Source: an uncultured Acidobacteriota bacterium (GTDB taxonomy: Bacteria > Acidobacteriota > Vicinamibacteria > Vicinamibacterales > JAFNAJ01). Taken from it: a stretch of DNA of 64,000 bases. Location: NCBI GenBank assembly GCA_963697285.1, contig CAVONI010000012.1:383548-447547 (forward strand), written 5' to 3'. The notes beneath the pieces were generated by a model. The model was not told where the DNA came from and searched no databases. It worked only from the letters and a program-made list of their open reading frames with translations. Position 1 is the first letter of the stretch; every line of letters starts with the position of its first letter. A program made the translations under genes and the position numbers. Of this stretch, positions 5,792 through 39,756 are shown piece after piece.

Positions 5792-7024
5792 TCAGTGGCC
5801 CGACGACTCGGCAGCCACACTCGTCGGGCGGCGTGCCTTGGCGGAGCGGCTGCGCGCCGCGTAGTTCGACAGTTCTTCGGGCACCCGGCTGTCGCCGTCG
5901 GCGCGGGCCACGTCGAGCCCGAAACGCCGCGGAATCTCGCGCACGCGAAACATCGGCTCACCGAGGATGTCGTAGTGCATGTTGCGCCGCTTCGGCACGA
6001 ACCCCGCGTTCTCGATGTTCTCGACGATCTCGACCTCGTCCATGCAGTAGCTGGCGCCTGCCGCACGCACGACGTTTTCCTCGATCATCACGCTGCCCAT
6101 GTCATTGGCGCCGAAGGCAAGGCTCAACTGGCCCACCTTGCCGCCCTGCGTGACCCACGACGACTGCAGGTTGTGGAAGTTGTCGAGCACGATCCGCGCG
6201 GTCGACAGCGTGCGCAGGTATTCGACCCCGGTGGCTTCCACGCCCTCGAGCTCGGTGTGCTCGGGCTGGTAGCTCCAGGTGATGAAGGCCGTGAAGCCCC
6301 CGGTCTCGTCCTGCAGGTCGCGCAACCGCAACATGTGCTCGACGCGCTCGTCGGGCGTCTCGACGCTCCCGTACATCATGGTCGCCGTCGTGCGCAGGCC
6401 CGCGCGATGCGCGTGACGCATCACGTCGAGCCACTCGTCGGCCGACGCCTTCGAGTAGCAGTTCATCAGCCGGCGCGCGCGATCGACCAGGATCTCGGCA
6501 CCGCCCCCCGGAATGCTGTCGAGCCCGGCTGCGATCAGGCGTGCGATCACGTCGGGCACGGGCACGCGCGACAGCCGAGAGATGTGGAGCACCTCGGGCG
6601 GCGACAGCGCGTGCAGGCGAAAGGCGGGATAGCGCGACTTGATCGCGCGGAACAGGTCTTCGTACCACGCGAGGGGCAGGTCGGGGTTGTGCCCGCCCTG
6701 CAGGAGCAACTGCTCTCCGCCCACCGAGAGGGTCTCGTCAATCTTCTCGAAGATCTCGTCGAAGCCGAGGACGTAGCCCTCGCTCGATCCGACCTGGCGG
6801 TAGAACGCGCAGAACGCGCACCGTGCGACGCAGACGTTCGTGTAGTTGACGTTGCGGTCGATGATGTACGTCACCACCGGTTCGGGATGGCGACGACGCC
6901 TGATGCCGTCGGCAAGCTCGCCCAGCAACGCCGTTGGAGCCTCGCGGTACAGCAGGCGGGCCTCGTCGCCGTCGACGCGCTCCCCTGCTCGTACCTTGTC
7001 GGCCAGTGATCGCAGCGTGGTCAT
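5792..7024 (-). CDS. mqnC: Radical SAM menaquinone (futalosine pathway) enzyme, MqnC/MqnE family
   Basis: From ATG 7024 (MTTLRSLADK...). The motif TYIIDRNVNYTNVCVARCAFCAFYR contains CxxxCxxC, and the C-terminus has the FGANDMGS motif. MqnC versus MqnE cannot be settled by eye. Confidence 0.8.
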   Translation of the reverse strand: MTTLRSLADKVRAGERVDGDEARLLYREAPTALLGELADGIRRRRHPEPVVTYIIDRNVNYTNVCVARCAFCAFYRQVGSSEGYVLGFDEIFEKIDETLSVGGEQLLLQGGHNPDLPLAWYEDLFRAIKSRYPAFRLHALSPPEVLHISRLSRVPVPDVIARLIAAGLDSIPGGGAEILVDRARRLMNCYSKASADEWLDVMRHAHRAGLRTTATMMYGSVETPDERVEHMLRLRDLQDETGGFTAFITWSYQPEHTELEGVEATGVEYLRTLSTARIVLDNFHNLQSSWVTQGGKVGQLSLAFGANDMGSVMIEENVVRAAGASYCMDEVEIVENIENAGFVPKRRNMHYDILGEPMFRVREIPRRFGLDVARADGDSRVPEELSNYAARSRSAKARRPTSVAAESSGH

Positions 7025-29683: not shown

Positions 29684-30400
29684 ATGGGAATCAAGGAACG
29701 TCACGAGCGGGAGCGCGAAACCGTCAGGCAGGCCATCCTCGACGCGGCCCGCGACCTGTTCGTCACCGAGGGGTACCAGCACGTCTCGATCCGCAAGATT
29801 GCCGAGCGCATCGAATACAGCCCCGCCGCCATCTACAGTTATTTCGAAGGCAAGGACGACATCTTCTTCGCGCTGGCCGAAGACGGATTCCGCCTGATGC
29901 ACGGCATGGCCGTCGGAGCCGCCCCACCGGGGGCGCCGGCGATTGACACCCTGCGCAGCATCCTGCTCTCGCTGTTCCACTTCAGCCAGCAGCACCCCGA
30001 GCACTACAACCTCATGTTCATCGACCGCTCGGTGCCCCGCATTCGTGCGCATTACGAGCGCTTCCGGTTCCTCGTCGAGATGAAACAAACCGCCGCCCTC
30101 GTCGTCGATCGGTGTATCGCCGAAGGTGCCCTGCCCGCGGGACTCGACGGCATGTCGGTGTTCCGCGTGCTCGTCGCCGCCGTGCATGGAGCGTCAGCCG
30201 TCTCGGTGTGCGACCGCCTCGGACCCGGCGAATCGGCCGAGGCCCTGGCGCGGGATGCCGTCTCACTTGCCCTCCGTGGGTTGGCCGCCGGAGAACCCCT
30301 GACGTTCCAGGCGTGTTCTCCGCCGCAGTGTCTGTCCAGCGACGACCTGCCAGCCGTTGCGTCGTCTGTCACGACGTCACCTTCGGAGGTGACCACATGA
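29684..30400 (+). CDS. TetR/AcrR-family transcriptional regulator
   Basis: 238 aa with an N-terminal helix-turn-helix ([37 protein letters not shown]). It lies upstream of efflux genes. Confidence 0.85.
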
Positions 30401-30417
30401 ATCCCGTAACCCTCACC

Positions 30418-30453
30418 TCTTTCATCTTCTTCATCTCTTTCGTCTCTTTCATC
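30418..30453 (+). repeat. Four tandem 9-nt pyrimidine-rich repeats (TCTTTCATC / TTCTTCATC / TCTTTCGTC / TCTTTCATC)
   Basis: Read directly from the sequence. The repeats lie in the 92-nt tetR-adaptor spacer and are far more T-rich than the surrounding DNA. Confidence 0.85.
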
Positions 30454-30492
30454 TCGTCCGCGTTCGCCCGGCGCCATCGCCAGGAGCCTCAC

Positions 30493-31740
30493 ATGTCACG
30501 CCCCCGTCGTCGTCTCCCTTCGGTCGGTTCTTCAGCGCTGTTGGCGTTCGCCGTCGGGGTGCTGCCTTTGGCGGCCGCCGGCTGCAGCACCGCGTCGAGC
30601 CAGGCCAACGAAGCCCCCGCACCGGCGCCGGCGATTGCCGTGCAGACCGTGACGGTGGTCAGCGAGCCGATCACACGGACCGTGCGGGTCACGGGGTCGC
30701 TGATTGCCGACGAGCAAGCCGAGGTGTCGGCCGAGGTCAACGGGCGCATCGTGAGCACCCCTGTCGAGCTCGGCACGCGCGTCGCCGCCGGTGCGCCGCT
30801 CGTGGTGATCTCGCGCGAGCAGGCGTCGGCCCAGATGGCCGAGGCGCAGGCCAACGCCGCGCAGTCGGCCGCCGCGCTCGGCATCGTGAACGGAGCAGGC
30901 TTCGACCCCGAGAAGGTGCCCGACGTCGCCAACGCCAAGGCCGAGTGGGAACTCGCCGAGGCCGACCACGCGCGCATGCGATCACTGCTCGACCAGAAGG
31001 TGGTCTCGCAGGCCGAGTACGATCAGCGTCGCACACGGGTGGAGGCGGCCCGGCAGCAATACGAGGCGTCGAAGAACGCGGCGCAGCAGCGATACCAGGC
31101 GCTCGCCGCGGCCAACGCCCGCATCGGGCTGGCGCAGAAGGCGCTGAACGACACCACGGTGCGGGCCCCGTTCGCTGGCATCGTGGCCGAGCGTCGCGTC
31201 AGCGTGGGCGACTTCGTGACCACAGGCACACGGGTCGTCACGGTCGTCAGATCGAACCCGCTGCGCATGGCCCTGACCGTTCCAGAGCAACTCGTCTCGC
31301 GGATTGCCGTCGGCCAACCGGTCCGCATCACGGTTGATGCGTATCCCAACCGCACCTTCGAAGGAACGGTGCGATACATCGCGCCGGCCCTCCGCGCCGA
31401 GCAGCGGTCGCTCACGGTCGAGGCCATCGTGCCCAATCCGGAGGGCCAACTGAAGCCCGGCTTCTTCGCGACCGCCGAAGTGTCGCAATCCGCAGAGGAG
31501 CCCGCGCTGCTGGTGTCGCAACAGGCGGTGAGAACCGTCTCAGGCACGCGCCGCGTCTTCGTCGTCACCGGTGACCGCGTCGAGGAGCGCATCGTGAAGA
31601 CGGGGCAGATCGTCGGCGATCGCATCGAGATCGTCGAGGGCGTCGCCAAGGGTGACGTGGTGGCCGTATCGACCGATGTCCGGCTGACCGACGGGGCGCG
31701 CGTCACCGCGTCGAACTCCCCGAAGGCCGCCACGCACTGA
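30493..31740 (+). CDS. Efflux RND periplasmic adaptor subunit (membrane fusion protein), lipoprotein
   Basis: ATG 30493 lies 7 nt after AGGAG. The signal peptide carries a lipobox (LPLAAAGC). A coiled-coil hairpin region and a beta-barrel domain follow (VRAPFAGIVAERRVSVGDFV). Confidence 0.85.
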   Translation: MSRPRRRLPSVGSSALLAFAVGVLPLAAAGCSTASSQANEAPAPAPAIAVQTVTVVSEPITRTVRVTGSLIADEQAEVSAEVNGRIVSTPVELGTRVAAGAPLVVISREQASAQMAEAQANAAQSAAALGIVNGAGFDPEKVPDVANAKAEWELAEADHARMRSLLDQKVVSQAEYDQRRTRVEAARQQYEASKNAAQQRYQALAAANARIGLAQKALNDTTVRAPFAGIVAERRVSVGDFVTTGTRVVTVVRSNPLRMALTVPEQLVSRIAVGQPVRITVDAYPNRTFEGTVRYIAPALRAEQRSLTVEAIVPNPEGQLKPGFFATAEVSQSAEEPALLVSQQAVRTVSGTRRVFVVTGDRVEERIVKTGQIVGDRIEIVEGVAKGDVVAVSTDVRLTDGARVTASNSPKAATH

Positions 31741-31778
31741 CACCCGTCGCCTCGTCCTGATTCCCTGGAGTTCTTGTC

Positions 31779-34700
31779 ATGCAGTGGCTCGCCAGCCTCT
31801 CCGTCAAGCGTCCCGTGTTCGCGTCGGTGCTCATCCTGACGCTCACGGTCATCGGCGGTTTCTCGTTTTTTCAACTCGGCGTCGACCGGTTCCCCAAGGT
31901 CGACTTCCCCACCATCCTCGTCACCACGCGCCAGGCCGGTGCGTCACCGGAACAGATCGAGACCGAGATCACCGACAAGATCGAAGAGGCGGTGAACACG
32001 GTCAGCGGCATCGACGAGCTGCGCTCGGTGTCGTCCGAGGGCGTATCGACGGTCATCGTCTCGTTCGTCCTCGAGAAGAACGTCGATATTGCCGCGCAGG
32101 AAGTGCGCGACCGCATCAACCGCGTGTTGCCCCTGTTGCCGACCACCGTCGATCAGCCGACCATCGAGAAACTCGATCCCGACGCGGCCCCGGTGCTCAC
32201 GCTCGCCGTGACCTCGGCCAAGCCGATACGCGACGTGACGGAGTTCGCCGACAAGACGCTCCGCCGACAGCTCGAGAGCCTGAACGGCGTTGGCCAGGTG
32301 CTCGTCGTGGGCGGGCGCGGCCGTCAGATCAACCTGTGGCTGGATGCCGCCCGGTTGCAGGCCTACAACCTCACCGTGAGCGAGGTGGCGCGTGCGCTCA
32401 ACGCGCAGAACGCCGAAGTCCCTGGCGGTCGCGTCGAGCAGGGCCCCGAGACTCTCACGCTGCGCACGCTGGGACGCGTGACATCGGTCGAGGACTTCGG
32501 ACGAATCGTCGTCCGCCAGAGCGGCGACCACCCCATCATGGTGAGCGACGTCGCCCGGGTGGACGACGGCATGGCCGAAGCGGCGTCGCTGGCGAACGTG
32601 AACGGCGAGGGCACCGTCATCCTGCAGTTGCGGAAGCAGTCGGGCACCAACACCGTCGAAGTGGTGAACCGGGTCAAGGAACGGCTCGAGGAGCTTCGCG
32701 CGACCCTGCCGCCCGGCTACGCCGTGCGCGTCGTGCGCGATCAATCGGAGTTCATCGAAGCGTCGATCAAGACGGTCGAGGAACACCTCGTGATCGGGTC
32801 GGTGCTGGCAGCACTCGTCGTCCTGCTCTTCCTGGGCAGCCTGCGCTCGACGGTGATCGCGGCGGTGGCCATCCCGACGTCGATCATCGCGGCGTTCGGC
32901 CTCATCAACTTCATGGGGTTCACGCTGAACTCGATGACCATGCTGGCGCTGACCCTGGCGGTGGGCATCGTGATCGACGACGCGATCGTCGTGCTCGAGA
33001 ACATCTGGCGGTACATCGACGAGAAGGGATATCCCCCGTTCCAGGCCGCCATCGAGGCGACGCGCGAAATCGGGCTGGCGGTCATGGCGACGACGCTGTC
33101 GCTGATGGCGATCTTCGTGCCGGTGGGCTTCATGGGCGGCATCGTTGGCCGCTTCATGAAGTCGTTCGGCCTGACGATGGCGTTTGCGATCGCGGTGTCG
33201 CTGCTCGTGGCCTTCACGCTGACACCGATGATGTCGGCGAGGCTGCTTCGCCGCACCCCCCGCAAGGACGAAGACGACACACGTCCGACGGGCCGCGCCC
33301 CCGGCGAGCACGGCAAGAGCGGCTTCTTCGCACCCATTGATGCCATGTATGCGCGCACGCTCGAGTGGGCGCTTGGGCACACGCGCACCGTCGCGGCAGG
33401 TGCGGTGCTGGTGCTGCTCTCGACGGGTCCCCTGTTCGTCCTGGCGAACAAGACATTCATTCCCGACGACGACCAGTCGGAGTTCGAGATCAACGTCCGC
33501 GCGCCCGAAGGCACGAGCCTCGACAAGACCGCGCTGCTGGTCACGCGGATCGCCTCGCGGGTCCGTGAGCGCTTTCCGGCCGAAGTCGCCTACACCCTGA
33601 CGACGGCCGCCGACGATCCCGCGCGCACGCCGAACGCGGCCACCATCTACGTCCGCCTGAAGTCACTCGACGAACGCACGCGCGATCAGTTCGCGGTGAT
33701 GTCGGCAGTCCGCACGTCGGTCTTGCCCGAGTTCACAGACTTGAAACTGCGCACCGCCGTCCGGCCGGTGGCGACCATCGGCGGCGGCGGCAACCAGAAC
33801 GCGGCGATTCAGTACCTGATCAAGGGCCCGGACCTGAACGTCCTGCAGGACGCCGGGCGCAAGGTGGCCGCGGCGGCCGCGGGGATCCCGGGGCTCGTGG
33901 ACATCGACACGTCGATGAACCTGGGCAAGCCGGAGGTTTCGGTGCGCCTCGATCGCATGAAGGCCGCCGACCTCGGCGTACCCCTGGCCGACGCGGCGAA
34001 CGCGTTGCGCCTGCTCGTCGGAGGCGATCAGGTCACGACCTACAACGAGGGTGGTGAGCAGTACCAGGTGCACCTGCGCGCAGACGCGCCCGACCGGACG
34101 ACCACGGCGGCGATTGCCGGGCTCACGGTGCCGTCGTCGCGGCTCGGTGCGGTCGCCCTCGAAAACGTGGCCCAGTTCGACGACGGCACGGCGCCCGCCG
34201 AGATCAACCGCCTCGGCCGCCAGCGCCAGGTGTCGATCTTCGCCAACCTGATGCCGGGCTCGTCGCAGACGACGCCGATGGCGGCGATCCAGGCGGAGTT
34301 CGCCAAGCTGGGACTCGACCCGTCCTACCAGGCCGGGTTCTCGGGCCGGTCGAAGGAACTCGGACGCGCCGCGCGCAACTTCGTCCTGGCGTTCGTGCTG
34401 TCGCTGATCTTCATGTACCTGATCCTGGCGGCGCAGTTCGAGTCGTGGCTCCACCCGGTGACGATCCTGCTCGCGCTGCCGCTCACGCTGCCGTTCGCGT
34501 TGCTGTCGATCATCGTCACGCAGCAATCGCTGAACATCTTCTCGGCCCTCGGCCTGCTCGTGCTGTTCGGCGTCGTGAAGAAGAACTCGATTCTGCAGAT
34601 AGACCACGCGATCCAGCTGCGGGCGCACGGGCTCGATCGGCACGAGGCCGTCGTCCGGGCGAGCCGCGACCGACTGCGTCCCATCCTCATGACCACGATG

Positions 34701-36524
34701 GCGTTCGTGGCGGGCATGATCCCGCTGGTGCTGTCGAGCGGCGTCGGATCGGGCACCAATCGCGCGATCGGCTTCGTCATCATCGGTGGACAGACGCTGG
34801 TGCTGTTGCTCACGCTGGTGGTGACACCGGTCGCGTACGTGCTCTTCGACGAATTGACCGAGTGGCGGCGCCGGGCATGGCAGCGGGTGCGGGCGACGCG
34901 CACGGGCAAGGTCGCCGTGGCGACCGCCACCGTGCTGCTGATCCTGCTCGGCGGCGCGTTCGCCGCCCGGGCGCTCGCGCAGGACGTGCCGGCCGCTGAA
35001 GTGCGCCTGACGCTCGACGAGGCCGTTCGCCTTGCCCTGCAGCACAATCCCGACGTGGTCGTGGCCCGTCTCGAACCCGAGGTCGGCGCTACGCGCGTCA
35101 AGCAGGCGCGTGGGGCGTTTGCACCGGTGCTTGCGGCCACGTTCGGTCGGTCGAGCGCGACCCAGCCGCCGAGCAACTTCCTGAGCGGGCCCAATGGCTC
35201 GACCAGCGACGACTGGTTCGGCTCGACCGGCGTCCGCGAGCGCCTTCCTTTTGGAGGCGGCACGTGGGGCGTCACGTGGGATGCGGGGCGCACGGAGAGC
35301 GACAGCATCATCTCGACGTTCAGCCCGGCGCTATCGTCGGGGTTGCAGGCCGCGTTCTCGCAGCCGCTGCTCCGCGACCTGAAGATCGACGCCGCGCGGC
35401 AGCAACTGCTGATCACGAAGCGGAACCGCGAACTCAGCGACGTGCGCTTTCGCGAGGTCGTCGCCCAGACGACGTCCGATGTGAAGCGTGCGTACTGGGA
35501 TCTCGTGGCGGCCAGAGCCAACGTCGAGGTGCAGCAGCAATCGCTGACGCTCGCCGCAGAGCTGGCCCGCATCAACAAGGCGCGTGTCGATGTCGGGCAG
35601 GCGCCACCGCTCGATCTCGTGTCGGCCGAGGCAGAGGTCGCACAACGGCGCGAGCAGGTCATCGTTGCGGTCTTCCTCGCGCGCGACGTCGAAGACCGGC
35701 TCCGCGCCTTGATCATGGATCCAGGCGATGCCAGCGCCTGGACCACCCGCCTGCTTCCCGTCGACAGGCCCGACGTGGGCGCCCCGCTTCCCGACGTCGA
35801 TCTCGCGGTGCAGGCGACACTCTCGGCACGCGCCGACATCGTTCGCGCGCAGACGGAAGCTGAGATCGCAGGCACGAACGTCGAGTTCCTGAAGAACCAG
35901 CGCCTGCCCGACCTGCGCCTCGAGGCGAGTTACCGGGCGGCGGGCCTGGGCGGCGACCGGTTGATCCGGGAGGGTGGCTTCCCGGGAACGGTCGTGGGCT
36001 CGGTGCCCGGCTCCTTCAGCGACGTCCTCGCGCAAGTGCGCAGCCGCGACTACCCGACGTGGACGCTTGGCGTGACCCTGAGCTACCCCCTGGGCGGCGG
36101 CTACGAGGATGCGACGTATGCCCGCGCGAAACTCGAGCAGCGGCAGGCCACGGCCCGTGTCGATGCGGTGCAGATCAGGGCCGAGCGAGAGGTACGGCAA
36201 GCCGCGCGGCAGATCGAATCGGCTCGACAGCGCGTCGAGACCTCGCACGCGGCCAGCGGGTTGGCCGAACAGCGCCTCGACGCCGAACAGAAGCGCTACG
36301 AGGTCGGAATGTCGACCAGCTTTCTCGTCGTCCAGGCACAGCGTGACCTCGCGCAGGCGAAGACAAACGAACTTCGGGCCATGCTCGATGCACAGAACGC
36401 CACGGTGAACTTCGAGGCGCTGCAACTCGCGCCGGCGTCAGGGCAGAACGGGTCGATCGTGGTGAGCGGGAACACCGTGCTGAACGTTCCGGTCGGCGTT
36501 CCGAGAGGAATGTCGCGTCCGTAG
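31779..36524 (+). CDS. RND efflux permease (AcrB-like) continuous in frame with a TolC-like outer membrane factor module
   Basis: 1581-codon ORF. The N-terminus MQWLASLSVKRPVFASVLIL and the 12-TM RND architecture extend to about codon 1035. TolC/OEP-type sequence then follows (LTLDEAVRLALQHNPDVVVARLE...). No stop codon lies between the two parts. Confidence 0.8.
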   Translation: MQWLASLSVKRPVFASVLILTLTVIGGFSFFQLGVDRFPKVDFPTILVTTRQAGASPEQIETEITDKIEEAVNTVSGIDELRSVSSEGVSTVIVSFVLEKNVDIAAQEVRDRINRVLPLLPTTVDQPTIEKLDPDAAPVLTLAVTSAKPIRDVTEFADKTLRRQLESLNGVGQVLVVGGRGRQINLWLDAARLQAYNLTVSEVARALNAQNAEVPGGRVEQGPETLTLRTLGRVTSVEDFGRIVVRQSGDHPIMVSDVARVDDGMAEAASLANVNGEGTVILQLRKQSGTNTVEVVNRVKERLEELRATLPPGYAVRVVRDQSEFIEASIKTVEEHLVIGSVLAALVVLLFLGSLRSTVIAAVAIPTSIIAAFGLINFMGFTLNSMTMLALTLAVGIVIDDAIVVLENIWRYIDEKGYPPFQAAIEATREIGLAVMATTLSLMAIFVPVGFMGGIVGRFMKSFGLTMAFAIAVSLLVAFTLTPMMSARLLRRTPRKDEDDTRPTGRAPGEHGKSGFFAPIDAMYARTLEWALGHTRTVAAGAVLVLLSTGPLFVLANKTFIPDDDQSEFEINVRAPEGTSLDKTALLVTRIASRVRERFPAEVAYTLTTAADDPARTPNAATIYVRLKSLDERTRDQFAVMSAVRTSVLPEFTDLKLRTAVRPVATIGGGGNQNAAIQYLIKGPDLNVLQDAGRKVAAAAAGIPGLVDIDTSMNLGKPEVSVRLDRMKAADLGVPLADAANALRLLVGGDQVTTYNEGGEQYQVHLRADAPDRTTTAAIAGLTVPSSRLGAVALENVAQFDDGTAPAEINRLGRQRQVSIFANLMPGSSQTTPMAAIQAEFAKLGLDPSYQAGFSGRSKELGRAARNFVLAFVLSLIFMYLILAAQFESWLHPVTILLALPLTLPFALLSIIVTQQSLNIFSALGLLVLFGVVKKNSILQIDHAIQLRAHGLDRHEAVVRASRDRLRPILMTTMAFVAGMIPLVLSSGVGSGTNRAIGFVIIGGQTLVLLLTLVVTPVAYVLFDELTEWRRRAWQRVRATRTGKVAVATATVLLILLGGAFAARALAQDVPAAEVRLTLDEAVRLALQHNPDVVVARLEPEVGATRVKQARGAFAPVLAATFGRSSATQPPSNFLSGPNGSTSDDWFGSTGVRERLPFGGGTWGVTWDAGRTESDSIISTFSPALSSGLQAAFSQPLLRDLKIDAARQQLLITKRNRELSDVRFREVVAQTTSDVKRAYWDLVAARANVEVQQQSLTLAAELARINKARVDVGQAPPLDLVSAEAEVAQRREQVIVAVFLARDVEDRLRALIMDPGDASAWTTRLLPVDRPDVGAPLPDVDLAVQATLSARADIVRAQTEAEIAGTNVEFLKNQRLPDLRLEASYRAAGLGGDRLIREGGFPGTVVGSVPGSFSDVLAQVRSRDYPTWTLGVTLSYPLGGGYEDATYARAKLEQRQATARVDAVQIRAEREVRQAARQIESARQRVETSHAASGLAEQRLDAEQKRYEVGMSTSFLVVQAQRDLAQAKTNELRAMLDAQNATVNFEALQLAPASGQNGSIVVSGNTVLNVPVGVPRGMSRP
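34887..36524 (+). CDS. TolC-family outer membrane efflux protein module; possible independent translation from the internal GTG
   Basis: The in-frame GTG at 34887 opens VRATRTGKVAVATATVLLILLGGAFAARALA|QD, a signal-peptide-like sequence with an AxA motif. Two OEP repeats follow. No strong Shine-Dalgarno sequence is seen. Confidence 0.45.
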   Translation: MRATRTGKVAVATATVLLILLGGAFAARALAQDVPAAEVRLTLDEAVRLALQHNPDVVVARLEPEVGATRVKQARGAFAPVLAATFGRSSATQPPSNFLSGPNGSTSDDWFGSTGVRERLPFGGGTWGVTWDAGRTESDSIISTFSPALSSGLQAAFSQPLLRDLKIDAARQQLLITKRNRELSDVRFREVVAQTTSDVKRAYWDLVAARANVEVQQQSLTLAAELARINKARVDVGQAPPLDLVSAEAEVAQRREQVIVAVFLARDVEDRLRALIMDPGDASAWTTRLLPVDRPDVGAPLPDVDLAVQATLSARADIVRAQTEAEIAGTNVEFLKNQRLPDLRLEASYRAAGLGGDRLIREGGFPGTVVGSVPGSFSDVLAQVRSRDYPTWTLGVTLSYPLGGGYEDATYARAKLEQRQATARVDAVQIRAEREVRQAARQIESARQRVETSHAASGLAEQRLDAEQKRYEVGMSTSFLVVQAQRDLAQAKTNELRAMLDAQNATVNFEALQLAPASGQNGSIVVSGNTVLNVPVGVPRGMSRP

Positions 36525-36572: not shown

Positions 36573-37079
36573 TCAGAACTTGAGGTTGACGCCCGCGTAG
36601 AGCCGCTGGGGCTTCTGGGCGAGCGCATCGCCCTGCAGCACGAACACGCGATAGTCGATGCGCAGCTGGAGCGGCCCGGCGAGGGCGATCTTCACGCCGC
36701 CGCCGATGTTCGTCGCCAGGCTGGTCTGGCTCACGTCGAGCAGCGTCTCGCGATACACGCCCGCGCCGGCGATCCCGTAGAACGTCAGCCCGCTGATCGG
36801 GATGGGATTCTGCACGAACGCGTTCGCCATGAACGTCCGCAGTTGCGGCGCGACGTCTTCGGGCGACTCGTGCGTCGACGCGTACTCGCCCTCGAAGCCG
36901 AACGCGACGAACGTGACGCCCGCCGATGCGCCGACCACCGCTCGCGATTCCGGCGATCCGTTCACGCCGAGAAACGCGGTGACGTCCGCGCGGGCGGCGG
37001 CCGGAGCCGCAATCAAGATTGCCGCGGCGAGCAGACGCGCACGCCATCCCTGCGCCATCATGTCGAGCCCTTCAATCAT
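36573..37079 (-). CDS. Small outer-membrane beta-barrel protein (OmpA-like/OmpW-like 8-strand type)
   Basis: Signal peptide ...LLAAAILIAAPAAARA|DV, alternating-hydrophobicity strands and a C-terminal ...YAGVNLKF ending in Phe. ATG 37079 overlaps the upstream stop as ATGA. Confidence 0.65.
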   Translation of the reverse strand: MIEGLDMMAQGWRARLLAAAILIAAPAAARADVTAFLGVNGSPESRAVVGASAGVTFVAFGFEGEYASTHESPEDVAPQLRTFMANAFVQNPIPISGLTFYGIAGAGVYRETLLDVSQTSLATNIGGGVKIALAGPLQLRIDYRVFVLQGDALAQKPQRLYAGVNLKF

Positions 37080-37714
37080 TTCGGCGCCGCCGGGACCACC
37101 GTCGGCGGAGCAAGCGCGGGGAGCAGCGGCGTCAGCGTCAGCACGTGGCGAGGCCCGGCGTAGGCGGCCGCGAACCTGCGATGGAGGTCGGGGGCGTCGA
37201 CCGGGAAGGCCTTGTAGATCATCTCGAGGATGAACGTCCCGGAGTAATCGGCGTCGGCCACGACGGGATCGATGACGAACAGGTACAGGGCATTGACGCC
37301 ACCGGGGGCGCCTTCGGCGGCCTTGACGACCTTCCAGCCCGCCACCCACGACTTCTGCGTCGCGTCGCCGACGGCCGCAACCGCCTCGAAGAACTTCGCC
37401 ATCACCAACTCGAAGTCGGCCGCCGCCGCTGGCAGGATCGGGTGGAACACGATTCCGGCCGCGCCCGCAATCTTCAGCGTGGCAGGCGGGATGGGTTCTG
37501 TCGTCGGTGCGACGCCCGAAGGCGCGGTGCCGGGTGGCTGCTCTGAAGGTGCCGACTGCGAAGGCGGTGGTGGCTGCGGGGCCCCTGCCGCCTGGGGCGC
37601 CGCAGGGTTCGCCGTCGGGGTCGGCGGAGGAGGCTGCGCACCCGCCTCACCGGTCCCCGTCGCGATGGCGAGGGCCGCTGCGGCAGATCGGGCAACGCCA
37701 AGGAAGGTGCGCAT
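37076..37714 (-). CDS. Secreted hypothetical protein, paralog A (signal peptide, Pro-rich linker, about 130-aa conserved domain)
   Basis: Begins MRTFLGVARSAAAALAIATGTGEAGA|Q, followed by a PPPPTPT...PP linker. The domain shares G.G..FH, DF..MAK, V.P.V.DADYS and Y.AFP blocks with the upstream gene product. Confidence 0.55.
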   Translation of the reverse strand: MRTFLGVARSAAAALAIATGTGEAGAQPPPPTPTANPAAPQAAGAPQPPPPSQSAPSEQPPGTAPSGVAPTTEPIPPATLKIAGAAGIVFHPILPAAAADFELVMAKFFEAVAAVGDATQKSWVAGWKVVKAAEGAPGGVNALYLFVIDPVVADADYSGTFILEMIYKAFPVDAPDLHRRFAAAYAGPRHVLTLTPLLPALAPPTVVPAAPK

Positions 37715-38431: not shown

Positions 38432-39286
38432 CTACGTGCCCGCGCGTCCGCCGCTCCACTTCAGTTGGCCGTCACCCTGGTCTGGCGCGCGCAGTTGCGC
38501 GCGGGCCGGGTTTGCGCGTCCAGGCAGGGTCCGGGTCCGCATCGGCTGCTGCTTGCGCTGCTGCCACATCATGCGGAGGTCGTCGACATCACCGTTCGGC
38601 GGCAGCTCGCGGTAGTCGGCACCGTCGAGATGCACGAACTCGCACATCTCGTGCAGTCGCGAGCGCATGCGGTAGCCGATGCGGCACAGCAGCGAGTCGG
38701 GATCGGAGATGTCGGGCTTGTCGTCGTAGTTCGACGTGAACATCGTCGTCTTCCGCTCGGAGTAGCGATGGTTGACGATGAGGTTCAGCGTCTCCTCCAC
38801 CCACTCCGATGACTTCTCGGCGCCGAGGTCGTCGAGCACGAGCAGGTCGCACCCGAGCACCGGCCGCAGCACGTCGCTTTCGGTGACGGGCACCGACGCG
38901 TCGTACGTCTGCCGCACGGCACGCAGGAGTTCGCGCGTGTCGTAGAACACCGCGTGCACGCGCTTGCGTTCGACGATGGCCTTGAGGGCGGCGACGGCGA
39001 TGTGGGTCTTCCCCACCCCGGGCGGGCCGAGCAGGAACAGTCCGCGGTCGACCGCCGGGAACTTGTCGACCAGCGTCCTGGCCGCGCTCACGGCGCGCAG
39101 GAGCGACTCGTTGCCGTAGGTGACGAAATCGTCGAGCGAACAGTGCTGGTAGCGGCGCGGCAGCCTGGCGTCGGTCAGCAGTCGCGTCGCCAGCGCGTCG
39201 CGCCAGCAGTCGCACCGCGTGACAAAGCGTGCGCCGTCACGTTCGACAGGCTTCCAACCAGAGTCGTCACACAGGGGACAGGGCAT
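38432..39286 (-). CDS. DnaC/DnaI-like AAA+ ATPase (putative helicase loader) with an N-terminal Cys4 zinc ribbon
   Basis: Begins MPCPLCDDSGW...RCDCW. Walker A is GPPGVGKTH and Walker B is LLVLDDLG, with TSNY after it. No transposase is adjacent. Confidence 0.7.
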   Translation of the reverse strand: MPCPLCDDSGWKPVERDGARFVTRCDCWRDALATRLLTDARLPRRYQHCSLDDFVTYGNESLLRAVSAARTLVDKFPAVDRGLFLLGPPGVGKTHIAVAALKAIVERKRVHAVFYDTRELLRAVRQTYDASVPVTESDVLRPVLGCDLLVLDDLGAEKSSEWVEETLNLIVNHRYSERKTTMFTSNYDDKPDISDPDSLLCRIGYRMRSRLHEMCEFVHLDGADYRELPPNGDVDDLRMMWQQRKQQPMRTRTLPGRANPARAQLRAPDQGDGQLKWSGGRAGT

Positions 39287-39334
39287 CGCGGTTTCCCGAA
39301 CTGCACGGGCCGTCGATGATAGCGCGCGGGTGTG

Positions 39335-39359
39335 AAAAAAGCGACCAGCCGCGCCGGTC
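39335..39359 (-). terminator. Rho-independent terminator after hspR
   Basis: The minus strand reads GACCGGC-GCG-GCTGGTC, a 7-bp stem with one G-U pair, followed by GCTTTTTTCAC. The T6 run is striking in this GC-rich context. The stem overlaps the hspR stop codon. Confidence 0.6.
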
Positions 39360-39756
39360 ACTCCTCGCGCGCGGCGGATCGGGCCAGCGGGGCGGGCGAC
39401 GACTTGACCATGGCCGTGTTGAGGCGCTGCTCCCACTCGCCCAGCCCGCGCGCGAGCTCACCCTTCACATACTCCATGAACTCGTTGACCTCGTGCTGCA
39501 TCTGCTCCATCTTCGCCCGCATGTTGAGGATGATCTCGACGCCTGCCAGGTTCACGCCCAGGTCGCGCGTGAGCGACAGGATGGTCTCGAGCCGCTCACA
39601 GTCGGCGTCGGAGAACATCCGCGTGTTGCCCTCGGTGCGCGACGGCATGAGCAGCCCTTCGCGCTCGTAGAGCCGCAGGGTCTGGGGATGGATGTCGTAG
39701 CGCGACGCGACCGCACTGATCGTGTACAGCGCCTTGCCTGCGCGTGGTGCGGTCAT
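39358..39756 (-). CDS. hspR: Heat-shock repressor HspR (MerR family)
   Basis: 132 aa containing YTISAVASRYDIHPQTLRLYEREGLL.PSRTEGNTR.F. It lies downstream of dnaJ, as in actinobacterial-type dnaK operons. Confidence 0.85.
   Translation of the reverse strand: MTAPRAGKALYTISAVASRYDIHPQTLRLYEREGLLMPSRTEGNTRMFSDADCERLETILSLTRDLGVNLAGVEIILNMRAKMEQMQHEVNEFMEYVKGELARGLGEWEQRLNTAMVKSSPAPLARSAAREE

Follow-up and report, generated by a model that had tools for sequence, protein, structure and literature searches.

A permease and an outer-membrane factor in one open reading frame: a conserved RND::OMF fusion in Vicinamibacterales with a predicted internal signal peptide

In canonical efflux pumps of the HAE1 family, the resistance-nodulation-division (RND) permease of the inner membrane and the OMF (outer-membrane factor) are separate polypeptides in every described system (PMC8277102, PMC4754349). 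Covalent links between subunits are known from RND-superfamily machines: engineered fusions of the permease with the membrane fusion protein (MFP), the periplasmic adaptor, are used in electron microscopy to stabilise AcrAB(Z)-TolC (PMC4754349, with its refs 36 and 38), and a natural SecD-SecF fusion occurs in Thermus thermophilus (PMC8277102). Here we describe a locus in which the permease and the OMF are encoded by a single open reading frame (ORF). It lies in a stretch of 64,000 nt (called the window here) from an uncultured Acidobacteriota bacterium (Vicinamibacterales, JAFNAJ01; assembly GCA_963697285.1, contig CAVONI010000012.1, positions 383,548-447,547, forward strand). An internal signal within one polypeptide has a precedent in FbcH of Bradyrhizobium japonicum, which Thony-Meyer and colleagues reportedly described in about 1989-1991 as a cytochrome b-c1 precursor polyprotein that is proteolysed at such a signal. 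Full-text literature searches returned no published description of an RND-OMF fusion, and the reviews that treat tripartite pumps or the fusion of outer-membrane proteins make no mention of this architecture. The author of an earlier note on this DNA had likewise known of no described permease-OMF fusion.

The earlier note had read positions 31779-36524 as an uninterrupted ORF of 1581 codons with no stop between a permease part and a TolC-like part. This was confirmed, and both modules are complete. The codons that it had singled out at the junction are exactly placed: TGG at 34878 is W1034, CAG at 34881 is Q1035, and GTG at 34887 is V1037. The fused gene has the following features:

31767-31770, + strand: GGAG Shine-Dalgarno motif, 8 nt before the ATG of the fused gene (sequence ctGGAGttcttgtcATG).
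31779-36524, + strand: fused RND::OMF ORF of 1581 codons, which opens with ATG, closes with TAG and is uninterrupted at the junction.
31779-34847, + strand: RND permease module (HAE1, MdtB/MdtC-like), aa 1-1023, with 12 transmembrane (TM) helices; from the ACR_tran match, the MdtB alignment and hydropathy.
34848-34910, + strand: basic cytoplasmic linker D1024-K1044, which would serve the internal signal as its n-region, with a net charge of about +4.
34887-34889, + strand: GTG (V1037), proposed as an internal start in the earlier note and probably a plain valine codon; it is without a Shine-Dalgarno motif and is CTG in locus L001.
34911-34967, + strand: hydrophobic core V1045-A1063, VAVATATVLLILLGGAFAA, the putative h-region and predicted 13th TM helix (N-in/C-out); from Kyte-Doolittle hydropathy, AlphaFold2 and homologues.
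34968-34979, + strand: c-region R-A-L-A, with a predicted signal peptidase I site between A1067 (34977-34979) and Q1068 (34980-34982); from the small-x-A rule and conservation.
34980-35006, + strand: spacer Q1068-R1076 at the predicted N-terminus of the mature OMF; 9 aa, variable in relatives.
35007-36521, + strand: OMF module L1077-P1581, TolC fold with two OEP repeats; from Pfam OEP, AlphaFold2 and Foldseek.

The permease module matches Pfam ACR_tran (PF00873) at aa 5-1024, over the full length of the 1021-position model (E 7.5e-278). NCBIfam gave RND_permease and TolC/NodT subfamily matches on the fused protein. The score against RND_permease_2 was 882 bits, below the curated cut-off of 1250, so the module is a divergent member of that family. 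The nearest solved permease is MdtB of E. coli (9lyq, E 7e-150), which aligns from end to end (aa 7-1036 of the fused protein with 15-1035 of 1040). The hydropathy profile has the 12 RND helix peaks at the expected places and a 13th peak at 1045-1063, with no peak in the OMF part. The orientation of the permease, with cytoplasmic N- and C-termini, was taken from the solved homologues. The TM4 Asp-Asp and the TM10 Lys align with those of MdtB (GIVIDDAIVV with GFVVDDAIVV, and VKKNSIL with VKKNAIM), and the proton-relay residues D400 and D401 (TM4), K934 and K935 (TM10), and R965 and R967 (tested for the TM11 Arg) are invariant among 35 homologues. RND permeases are separate polypeptides of about 1030-1060 aa; here the chain runs on for a further 558 residues.

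The C-terminal third of the fused protein contains two stretches that match Pfam OEP (PF02321, E 1e-47). A sequence search of the OMF part against the PDB gave marginal matches only (E about 1e-4). The AlphaFold2 model of the module has a pLDDT of 83.4, and a Foldseek search of the PDB with this model returned TolC (1ek9), ST50, CmeC, TOprJ, OprM and CusC with a probability of 1.0 and TM-scores of 0.6-0.78 over approximately 480 columns. Thus, both modules look functional, since the proton-relay residues are invariant and the OMF is modelled as a complete TolC fold. The ORF is also not a chance open frame of a genome with 68% G+C, because both halves are full-length family matches and the arrangement recurs in well over 100 independent assemblies. 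TolC has two membrane strands per repeat. The OMF model has approximately four long β-strands in repeat 1 (41-53, 65-79, 86-98 and 109-120 of the module) and an enlarged strand region in repeat 2 (302-359), which might reflect additional hairpins or a barrel whose extracellular part is extended.

The segment between the modules has the layout of a Sec signal peptide. Positions 34887-34979 encode VRATRTGKVAVATATVLLILLGGAFAARALA, followed by Q1068. The earlier note had seen a basic n-region, a hydrophobic core and an AxA motif here, and both the sequence and the 13th hydropathy peak bear this out: the positively charged WRRRAWQRVRATRTGK is followed by the hydrophobic VAVATATVLLILLGGAFAA and then by R-A-L-A before the Gln, with small residues at -3 and -1. 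The mean Kyte-Doolittle value of the core (1045-1063) is 2.30 over 19 aa, which matches true TM helices. In the AlphaFold2 model of aa 1-1067, the chain breaks at 1041-1045 and is then predicted, with low confidence, to form a separate helix at 1046-1066. Position +1 is not a Cys, and the signal is therefore not of the lipoprotein type and would not involve lipoprotein signal peptidase. What is unusual is the position of the segment. Signal peptides are N-terminal, and this one begins about 1023 residues into the chain; OMFs have their N-terminal Sec signal or lipobox on a separate precursor, and the signal here occupies residues 1024-1067.

The same order was found across 121 aligned fused proteins: first the TM12 end (TPVAYSLFDD), then a basic linker, an uncharged stretch rich in A, T, L and V, small-x-A, Gln, a spacer and the first OMF helix. 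A hydrophobic stretch is present at the junction of every homologue aligned. The linker measures 12-27 aa in homologues, with a net charge of +3 to +6. The spacer is rich in P, A, Q and T and is variable, spanning 9 aa in the window against 13-66 aa in parsed homologues (median of 21 in relatives), and it is followed by the conserved first helix, L.LT.dEAVR.A..NNPDL. The junctions were parsed by regular expression, which covered 94-102 of the 121 sequences; the full alignment shows the same pattern in the remaining 19-27. An uncharged hydrophobic stretch with small-x-[A/G] before Gln was found in 89 of 94 parsed junctions and in 2.6% of composition-preserving shuffles, on which the same strict, Q-requiring site test was run. 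Among 102 junctions, Ala occupies -1 in 100 and -3 in 85, and Gln occupies +1 in 100; these counts are partly built in, as the site search favoured candidates with Gln at +1. The identity to the query is 0.71 in the RND part and 0.53 in the OMF part, and it falls to 0.30 in the junction. Judged from these comparisons, the junction is selected for the properties of a signal peptide and not for its sequence.

The unfused relatives indicate where this segment comes from. In six orthologues and 43 paralogues that are unfused, the equivalent place is taken by an ordinary N-terminal signal peptide, with Met, basic residues, a hydrophobic core and AxA before Gln. By this homology, the internal segment is the signal peptide of the OMF, in which the role of the n-region has apparently been taken over by the RND protein's own basic tail. 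A Gln at +1 is nearly invariant in the OMF family as a whole (26/27 fused and 46/47 split, with the Gln-favouring site search). It recalls the 'Q-rule' of N-terminal pyroglutamate in Bacteroidetes (PMC5837995).

The fusion is not restricted to the window. All of the 120 best protein-search matches are fused (1549-1646 aa, PF00873 plus PF02321, 61-86% identity; from ENA, JGI, NCBI and Logan). The named homologues belong to Vicinamibacteraceae or Vicinamibacterales (Acidobacteriota), and the NCBI labels read 'efflux RND transporter permease subunit' or 'hypothetical protein'. To counter the bias of ranking by a full-length query and of gene calling, the OMF-part alignment was scanned against one genome per species. 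The best 80 of 548 matching loci were classified, all of them in metagenome-assembled genomes (MAGs) of Acidobacteriota/Vicinamibacterales. A locus was called fused when the tblastn matches to the RND and OMF parts lay in one frame with no stop between them. This frame-aware test was used rather than the length of the upstream open frame because wrong-frame ORFs exceed 1000 codons in these high-G+C genomes. Within the 80 loci, 28 are orthologous to the locus in the window, on the basis of an RND identity of 61-88% in 27 of them (L062 has a partial RND match only, 51%) and the gene order TetR-MFP-RND-OMF in most. The comparison of orthologues for a stop codon at the junction, which the earlier note had proposed, gave 22 of these 28 loci fused in frame without a stop and 6 split. 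In a neighbour-joining tree of the orthologous clade, drawn without support values, fused and split forms interleave, which implies repeated fusion or fission. The RND::OMF fusion thus exists in this lineage and is conserved.

An exhaustive search of 50%-identity cluster representatives with the OMF part gave one full-length fused representative plus contig-edge fragments. In the same search, all OMF relatives below about 45% identity were separate proteins of 500-600 aa, so the RND::OMF architecture is confined to the Vicinamibacterales lineage. Candidates of odd length, considered as possible fusions in more distant lineages, were resolved by Pfam into contig-edge fragments of the same family or into the unrelated architectures AMIN+OEP and OEP+HlyD. 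One of them (P0252) is an AMIN domain followed by OEP. Another (P0161, 864 aa, 40% identical to the OMF of the window) has two OEP repeats (18-432) followed by HlyD_D23/HlyD_3 (576-796); by its domain content it is a single ORF of OMF and adaptor, another type of fusion of efflux components. In the P0060 cluster, one contig of 1.93 Mb has the fused gene in two pieces of 751 and 836 aa, with the break distant from the RND/OMF junction. This is most likely an indel error of long-read assembly, and single MAG loci can mislead.

The same genomes hold a paralogous MFP-RND-OMF system, whose RND is about 30% identical to that of the window and whose OMF is 50-57% identical. This system is mostly split, and its RND gene ends in a stop that overlaps the start of the OMF gene by 4 nt (ATGA). 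In four loci among the 80 classified (L015, L018, L042 and L065), it is fused. With the L015 protein as the query, 41 full-length fused clusters were found at 75-100% identity (JGI, ENA and NCBI), and RNDs that are 83-89% identical to the fused paralogues are separate proteins of 1024-1033 aa ending in ...RVPELAAAV*. In the fused paralogue, the complete RND C-terminus leads directly into the hydrophobic core, ...PELAAAV followed by SVALGIVFFASGASA and then QT, and the Met and n-region of the OMF are gone. A further type of paralogue junction reads ...GRLPQVAAGxIALALLLIAPxAFA, again followed by Q. Since the paralogous pump was fused separately and with distinct junctions, the comparison indicates that RND::OMF fusion arose independently at least two or three times in Vicinamibacterales. 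Most of the split paralogues (among L003-L079) have GGAGG inside the last RND codons (...PELAEAV*), beside the ATGA overlap. This arrangement suggests translational coupling and may be the ground state that gave rise to the fusions. One orthologous fusion appears young. The junction of L073 (...THSGVMMRR..., about 6880-7000 of that locus) has kept what was formerly a pre-start region, as in its split sister L069 (about 6730-7000), with ACTCACTCAGGTGTGATGATG in the former and ACTCCTCAGACAGGTGAACTATG in the latter, which indicates a recent fusion through deletion of the RND tail, stop and spacer.

The earlier note had left two explanations side by side: a permease stop lost by one substitution, with the OMF still made from GTG 34887, or a genuine fusion. 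A single base change could indeed remove a stop, and one relative has a frameshifted copy (the 751 + 836 aa pair on the same contig described above), although its break lies elsewhere in the gene. A sequencing or assembly error, or a recent private mutation that inactivated the gene or removed the stop, is nevertheless extremely improbable. The junction is in frame in no fewer than 120 protein clusters and in 22 genomes at species level, which come from many projects and sequencing technologies, the lengths of the linkers vary through many in-frame indels, and purifying selection on both modules is evident. We rejected the lost stop for the window on these grounds: the fusion is conserved across the clade down to 61% identity, and the 120 fused homologues, the junction alignment and the 22 of 28 fused loci refute a private error or mutation. 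A different matter is whether the OMF is translated from a start inside the fused gene (GTG 34887 or another NTG), so that the junction would be an N-terminal signal peptide after all and the read-through fusion a tolerated by-product. GTG 34887 stands in frame eight codons before the hydrophobic core, initiation there would give a textbook signal peptide, a GTG is present in several other junctions, and L073 retains an ATG-ATG together with a remnant of the former ribosome-binding region. The true OMF starts of 45 split loci look different. They are ATG in 42 cases and GTG in 3, with a Shine-Dalgarno motif in 40 of the 45 and a median anti-Shine-Dalgarno duplex of -8.0 kcal/mol, whereas the fused junctions have such a motif before an in-frame NTG in 1 of 27 and a median duplex of -2.1. 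No Shine-Dalgarno motif precedes GTG 34887 (GGCGCCGGGCATGGCAGCGG; duplex -3.5 kcal/mol), the codon is CTG in the closest relative of the window (L001) and Leu in P0001, and GTG is a common Val codon in a genome of 68% G+C. In 7 of the 27 fused junctions (L001, L056, L062, L070, L071, L072 and L077), there is no in-frame ATG, GTG or TTG between TM12 and the hydrophobic core. In the fused paralogues, where the RND C-terminus abuts the core, an internally started product would be without an n-region. The loss of the start codon and ribosome-binding site after fusion is as expected if the OMF is made within the long polypeptide. The fused genes themselves begin with ATG, and among relatives 13 of 19 have a Shine-Dalgarno motif at this start. 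We therefore did not retain the proposed synthesis from GTG 34887, and consider overlapping genes with an internal OMF start unlikely in general.

We propose that the fused gene probably encodes a polyprotein, most likely as one translation product, from which the internal 13th helix would export the OMF and signal peptidase I would release it after A1067. The genuine fusion anticipated by the earlier note stands, with 22 of 28 loci conserving it, and its signal-like 13th helix is favoured, since signal properties are kept while the sequence drifts; the cleavage and the 1:1 synthesis that it also put forward are still predictions. Alternatively, the hydrophobic segment might be a permanent 13th TM anchor with the OMF staying covalently on the permease. 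In favour of such an anchor, the uncharged stretch formed by the h- and c-regions slightly exceeds in length that of N-terminal signal peptides in relatives, but the near-invariant Ala at -1 and Gln at +1 would then have no explanation. The β-barrel also has to get to the outer membrane. In assembled pumps, the RND protein (periplasmic height 7 nm) and the OMF (10 nm) do not touch, and a gap of about 6 nm separates them at an intermembrane distance of 23 nm (PMC4754349). The site is 9 residues from the first OMF helix (median of 21 in relatives), and the OMF tip lies at least 13 nm from the inner membrane (PMC4754349), so an uncut chain could not put the OMF in the outer membrane. Separate proteins, moreover, form the same pump in closely related species. 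We regard an uncleaved fusion as very unlikely.

Several observations weigh against the polyprotein reading or limit it. The predicted cleavage site is based on the -3/-1 rule and conservation, and the preference of the site search for Gln bears on the second of these. The uncharged h- plus c-region stretch has a median of 21 residues in fused proteins and 18 in the N-terminal signal peptides of unfused relatives (Mann-Whitney p = 2.6e-6), which is a slight shift toward a signal anchor, though within the range of cleavable signals. An Arg stands at -4 in the c-region of the window. For aa 1-1067, the AlphaFold2 model has a pLDDT of 67.7, with 51-64 in the last helix, and is too uncertain to place the packing of helix 13. 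In-frame GTG or ATG codons do occur in the linker of the window and of some relatives, and L073 keeps the old ATG with part of its upstream region; some internal initiation may thus take place in individual genomes. The relatives are all metagenome-assembled genomes, and the interleaving of fused and split forms comes from the unsupported tree described above.

For the polyprotein, we infer the topology of the 13th helix, a cut by signal peptidase I, what becomes of the products, and a selective advantage that includes 1:1 synthesis. The ribosome would begin at ATG 31779, and the 12 RND helices would be inserted co-translationally, leaving the C-terminus in the cytoplasm as in MdtB and AcrB. 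The basic tail (aa 1024-1044) would remain cytoplasmic. The hydrophobic segment 1045-1063 would re-enter the Sec translocon as a 13th helix, driving the OMF of approximately 510 residues into the periplasm. As the RND C-terminus is cytoplasmic by homology with MdtB and AcrB, this segment would lie N-in/C-out with the AxA site at the periplasmic face, which is the geometry of a signal peptidase I substrate. Signal peptidase I would cut after A1065-L-A1067, and the freed OMF, beginning with Gln1068, would fold and trimerise in the outer membrane, while the RND protein would retain the signal as an extra C-terminal helix. The outcome would be obligatory 1:1 synthesis of two components whose ratio in the assembled pump is 3:3. 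A more speculative extension, which we put forward tentatively and consider doubtful as a whole, is a 'two-membrane polyprotein'. A single product targeted by the signal recognition particle (SRP) and Sec would deliver both the inner-membrane motor and the outer-membrane duct, and the OMF would be freed beside its cognate permease for local, dedicated 1:1 assembly. The 13th helix would itself be functional, conceivably at an AcrZ-like peripheral site, and the recurrent fusion would reflect selection for assembly in cis and not drift.

The genes upstream complete the operon:

29684-30400, + strand: TetR-family regulator, whose gene opens the conserved cluster; matches to Pfam TetR_N (E 2e-15) and TetR_C_33.
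30493-31740, + strand: periplasmic adaptor (MFP) lipoprotein, 415 aa; HlyD_D23 and TIGR01730 RND_mfp, with the start at M128 of the mechanical ORF 30112-31740.

The N-terminus of the adaptor, MSRPRRRLPSVGSSALLAFAVGVLPLAAAGC, contains a lipobox. The mechanical ORF reaches 127 codons upstream of the likely start (30112-30492) and overlaps the TetR gene; this extension is best read as an open-frame artefact of high G+C, as translation from 30493 yields a lipoprotein signal peptide. Most orthologous loci (exceptions are L044 and L066) have a TetR homologue upstream, at approximately 50% identity in closer relatives and 25-34% in others, and the adaptor is 51-63% identical across these loci. As neighbours, the operon has housekeeping genes for MeaB, acyl-CoA dehydrogenase, DnaK and a penicillin-binding protein of class A. 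The locus is thus an efflux operon of the tripartite RND kind under TetR control, made of TetR, lipoprotein adaptor and pump, and an ordinary chromosomal one save for the fusion. An Rfam scan of the whole window gave zero matches, and hence no hint that the junction contains a known RNA element. Two further ORFs nearby were noted. An ORF of 258 aa (36573-37349, - strand), convergent with the fused gene, has no Pfam match and ends in ...GVNLKF; a C-terminal aromatic residue is typical of outer-membrane β-barrel proteins. An ORF of 334 aa (38432-39436, - strand) matches IstB_IS21 and the DnaA ATPase domain and could be a DnaC/IstB-like AAA+ protein, possibly what is left of a mobile element close to the efflux operon.

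The machine is a known one, but the gene architecture that the fusion gives it is new. The fusion contradicts the textbook rule of three separate pump polypeptides, because a widespread soil lineage encodes two of them, bound for different membranes, as one chain, and has done so more than once. If the proposed processing is true, this would be a rare bacterial polyprotein resolved by an internal signal peptide and, to our knowledge, the first to feed an inner-membrane and an outer-membrane component from one translation event. The arrangement raises the questions of whether the OMF is exported co-translationally behind a protein of 12 helices, whether local release aids cognate assembly, and what role a 13th RND helix has. 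Closely related fused and split versions exist and provide natural controls. There is also a consequence for annotation: such proteins already sit unremarked in public databases, and where approximately 1600 residues are labelled only 'efflux RND transporter permease subunit', an OMF gene is hidden from resistome and transporter censuses.

With the canonical HAE1 pumps (MdtABC-TolC and AcrAB-TolC of E. coli, and MexAB-OprM of P. aeruginosa), the system of the window shares a lipoprotein adaptor, a 12-helix proton-driven permease with an Asp-Asp/Lys relay, a trimeric duct of the TolC fold and a local regulator of the TetR type, and a 3:6:3 assembly is expected here. It differs in having one ORF for permease and OMF, with the predicted OMF signal internal (aa 1024-1067), and in a permease that would end in a 13th helix. 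The unfused orthologues of Vicinamibacterales (L030, L036, L048, L060, L066 and L069) have the same MFP-RND-OMF order, with TetR upstream except in L066. Their RND is 63-73% and their OMF 53-55% identical to the fused modules, and their OMF signal also ends in AxA before Gln. Unlike the fused gene, they have an RND with its own stop after a short cytoplasmic tail, and an OMF with its own ATG (Shine-Dalgarno motif in 4 of 6) and a typical N-terminal n-region. The engineered RND-MFP and natural SecDF fusions show that covalent linkage of subunits is tolerated in RND-superfamily machines, but they are artificial or join two inner-membrane halves; none links the inner to the outer membrane, and none has an internal cleavable signal. 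The nearest mechanistic precedent is FbcH, in which a polytopic inner-membrane protein with a cytoplasmic C-terminus is reportedly followed, within one polypeptide, by an internal signal and then by a protein that faces the periplasm. The family described here has the same layout, known from its sequences, with a putative internal signal and an exported moiety in one ORF, junctions without any NTG in 7 of 27 cases, and paralogue fusions without an n-region of their own. The protein families are unrelated, and both products of FbcH reportedly stay in the inner-membrane bc1 complex, whereas the OMF of the window must cross the periplasm and enter the outer membrane, so that one polyprotein would feed two membranes.

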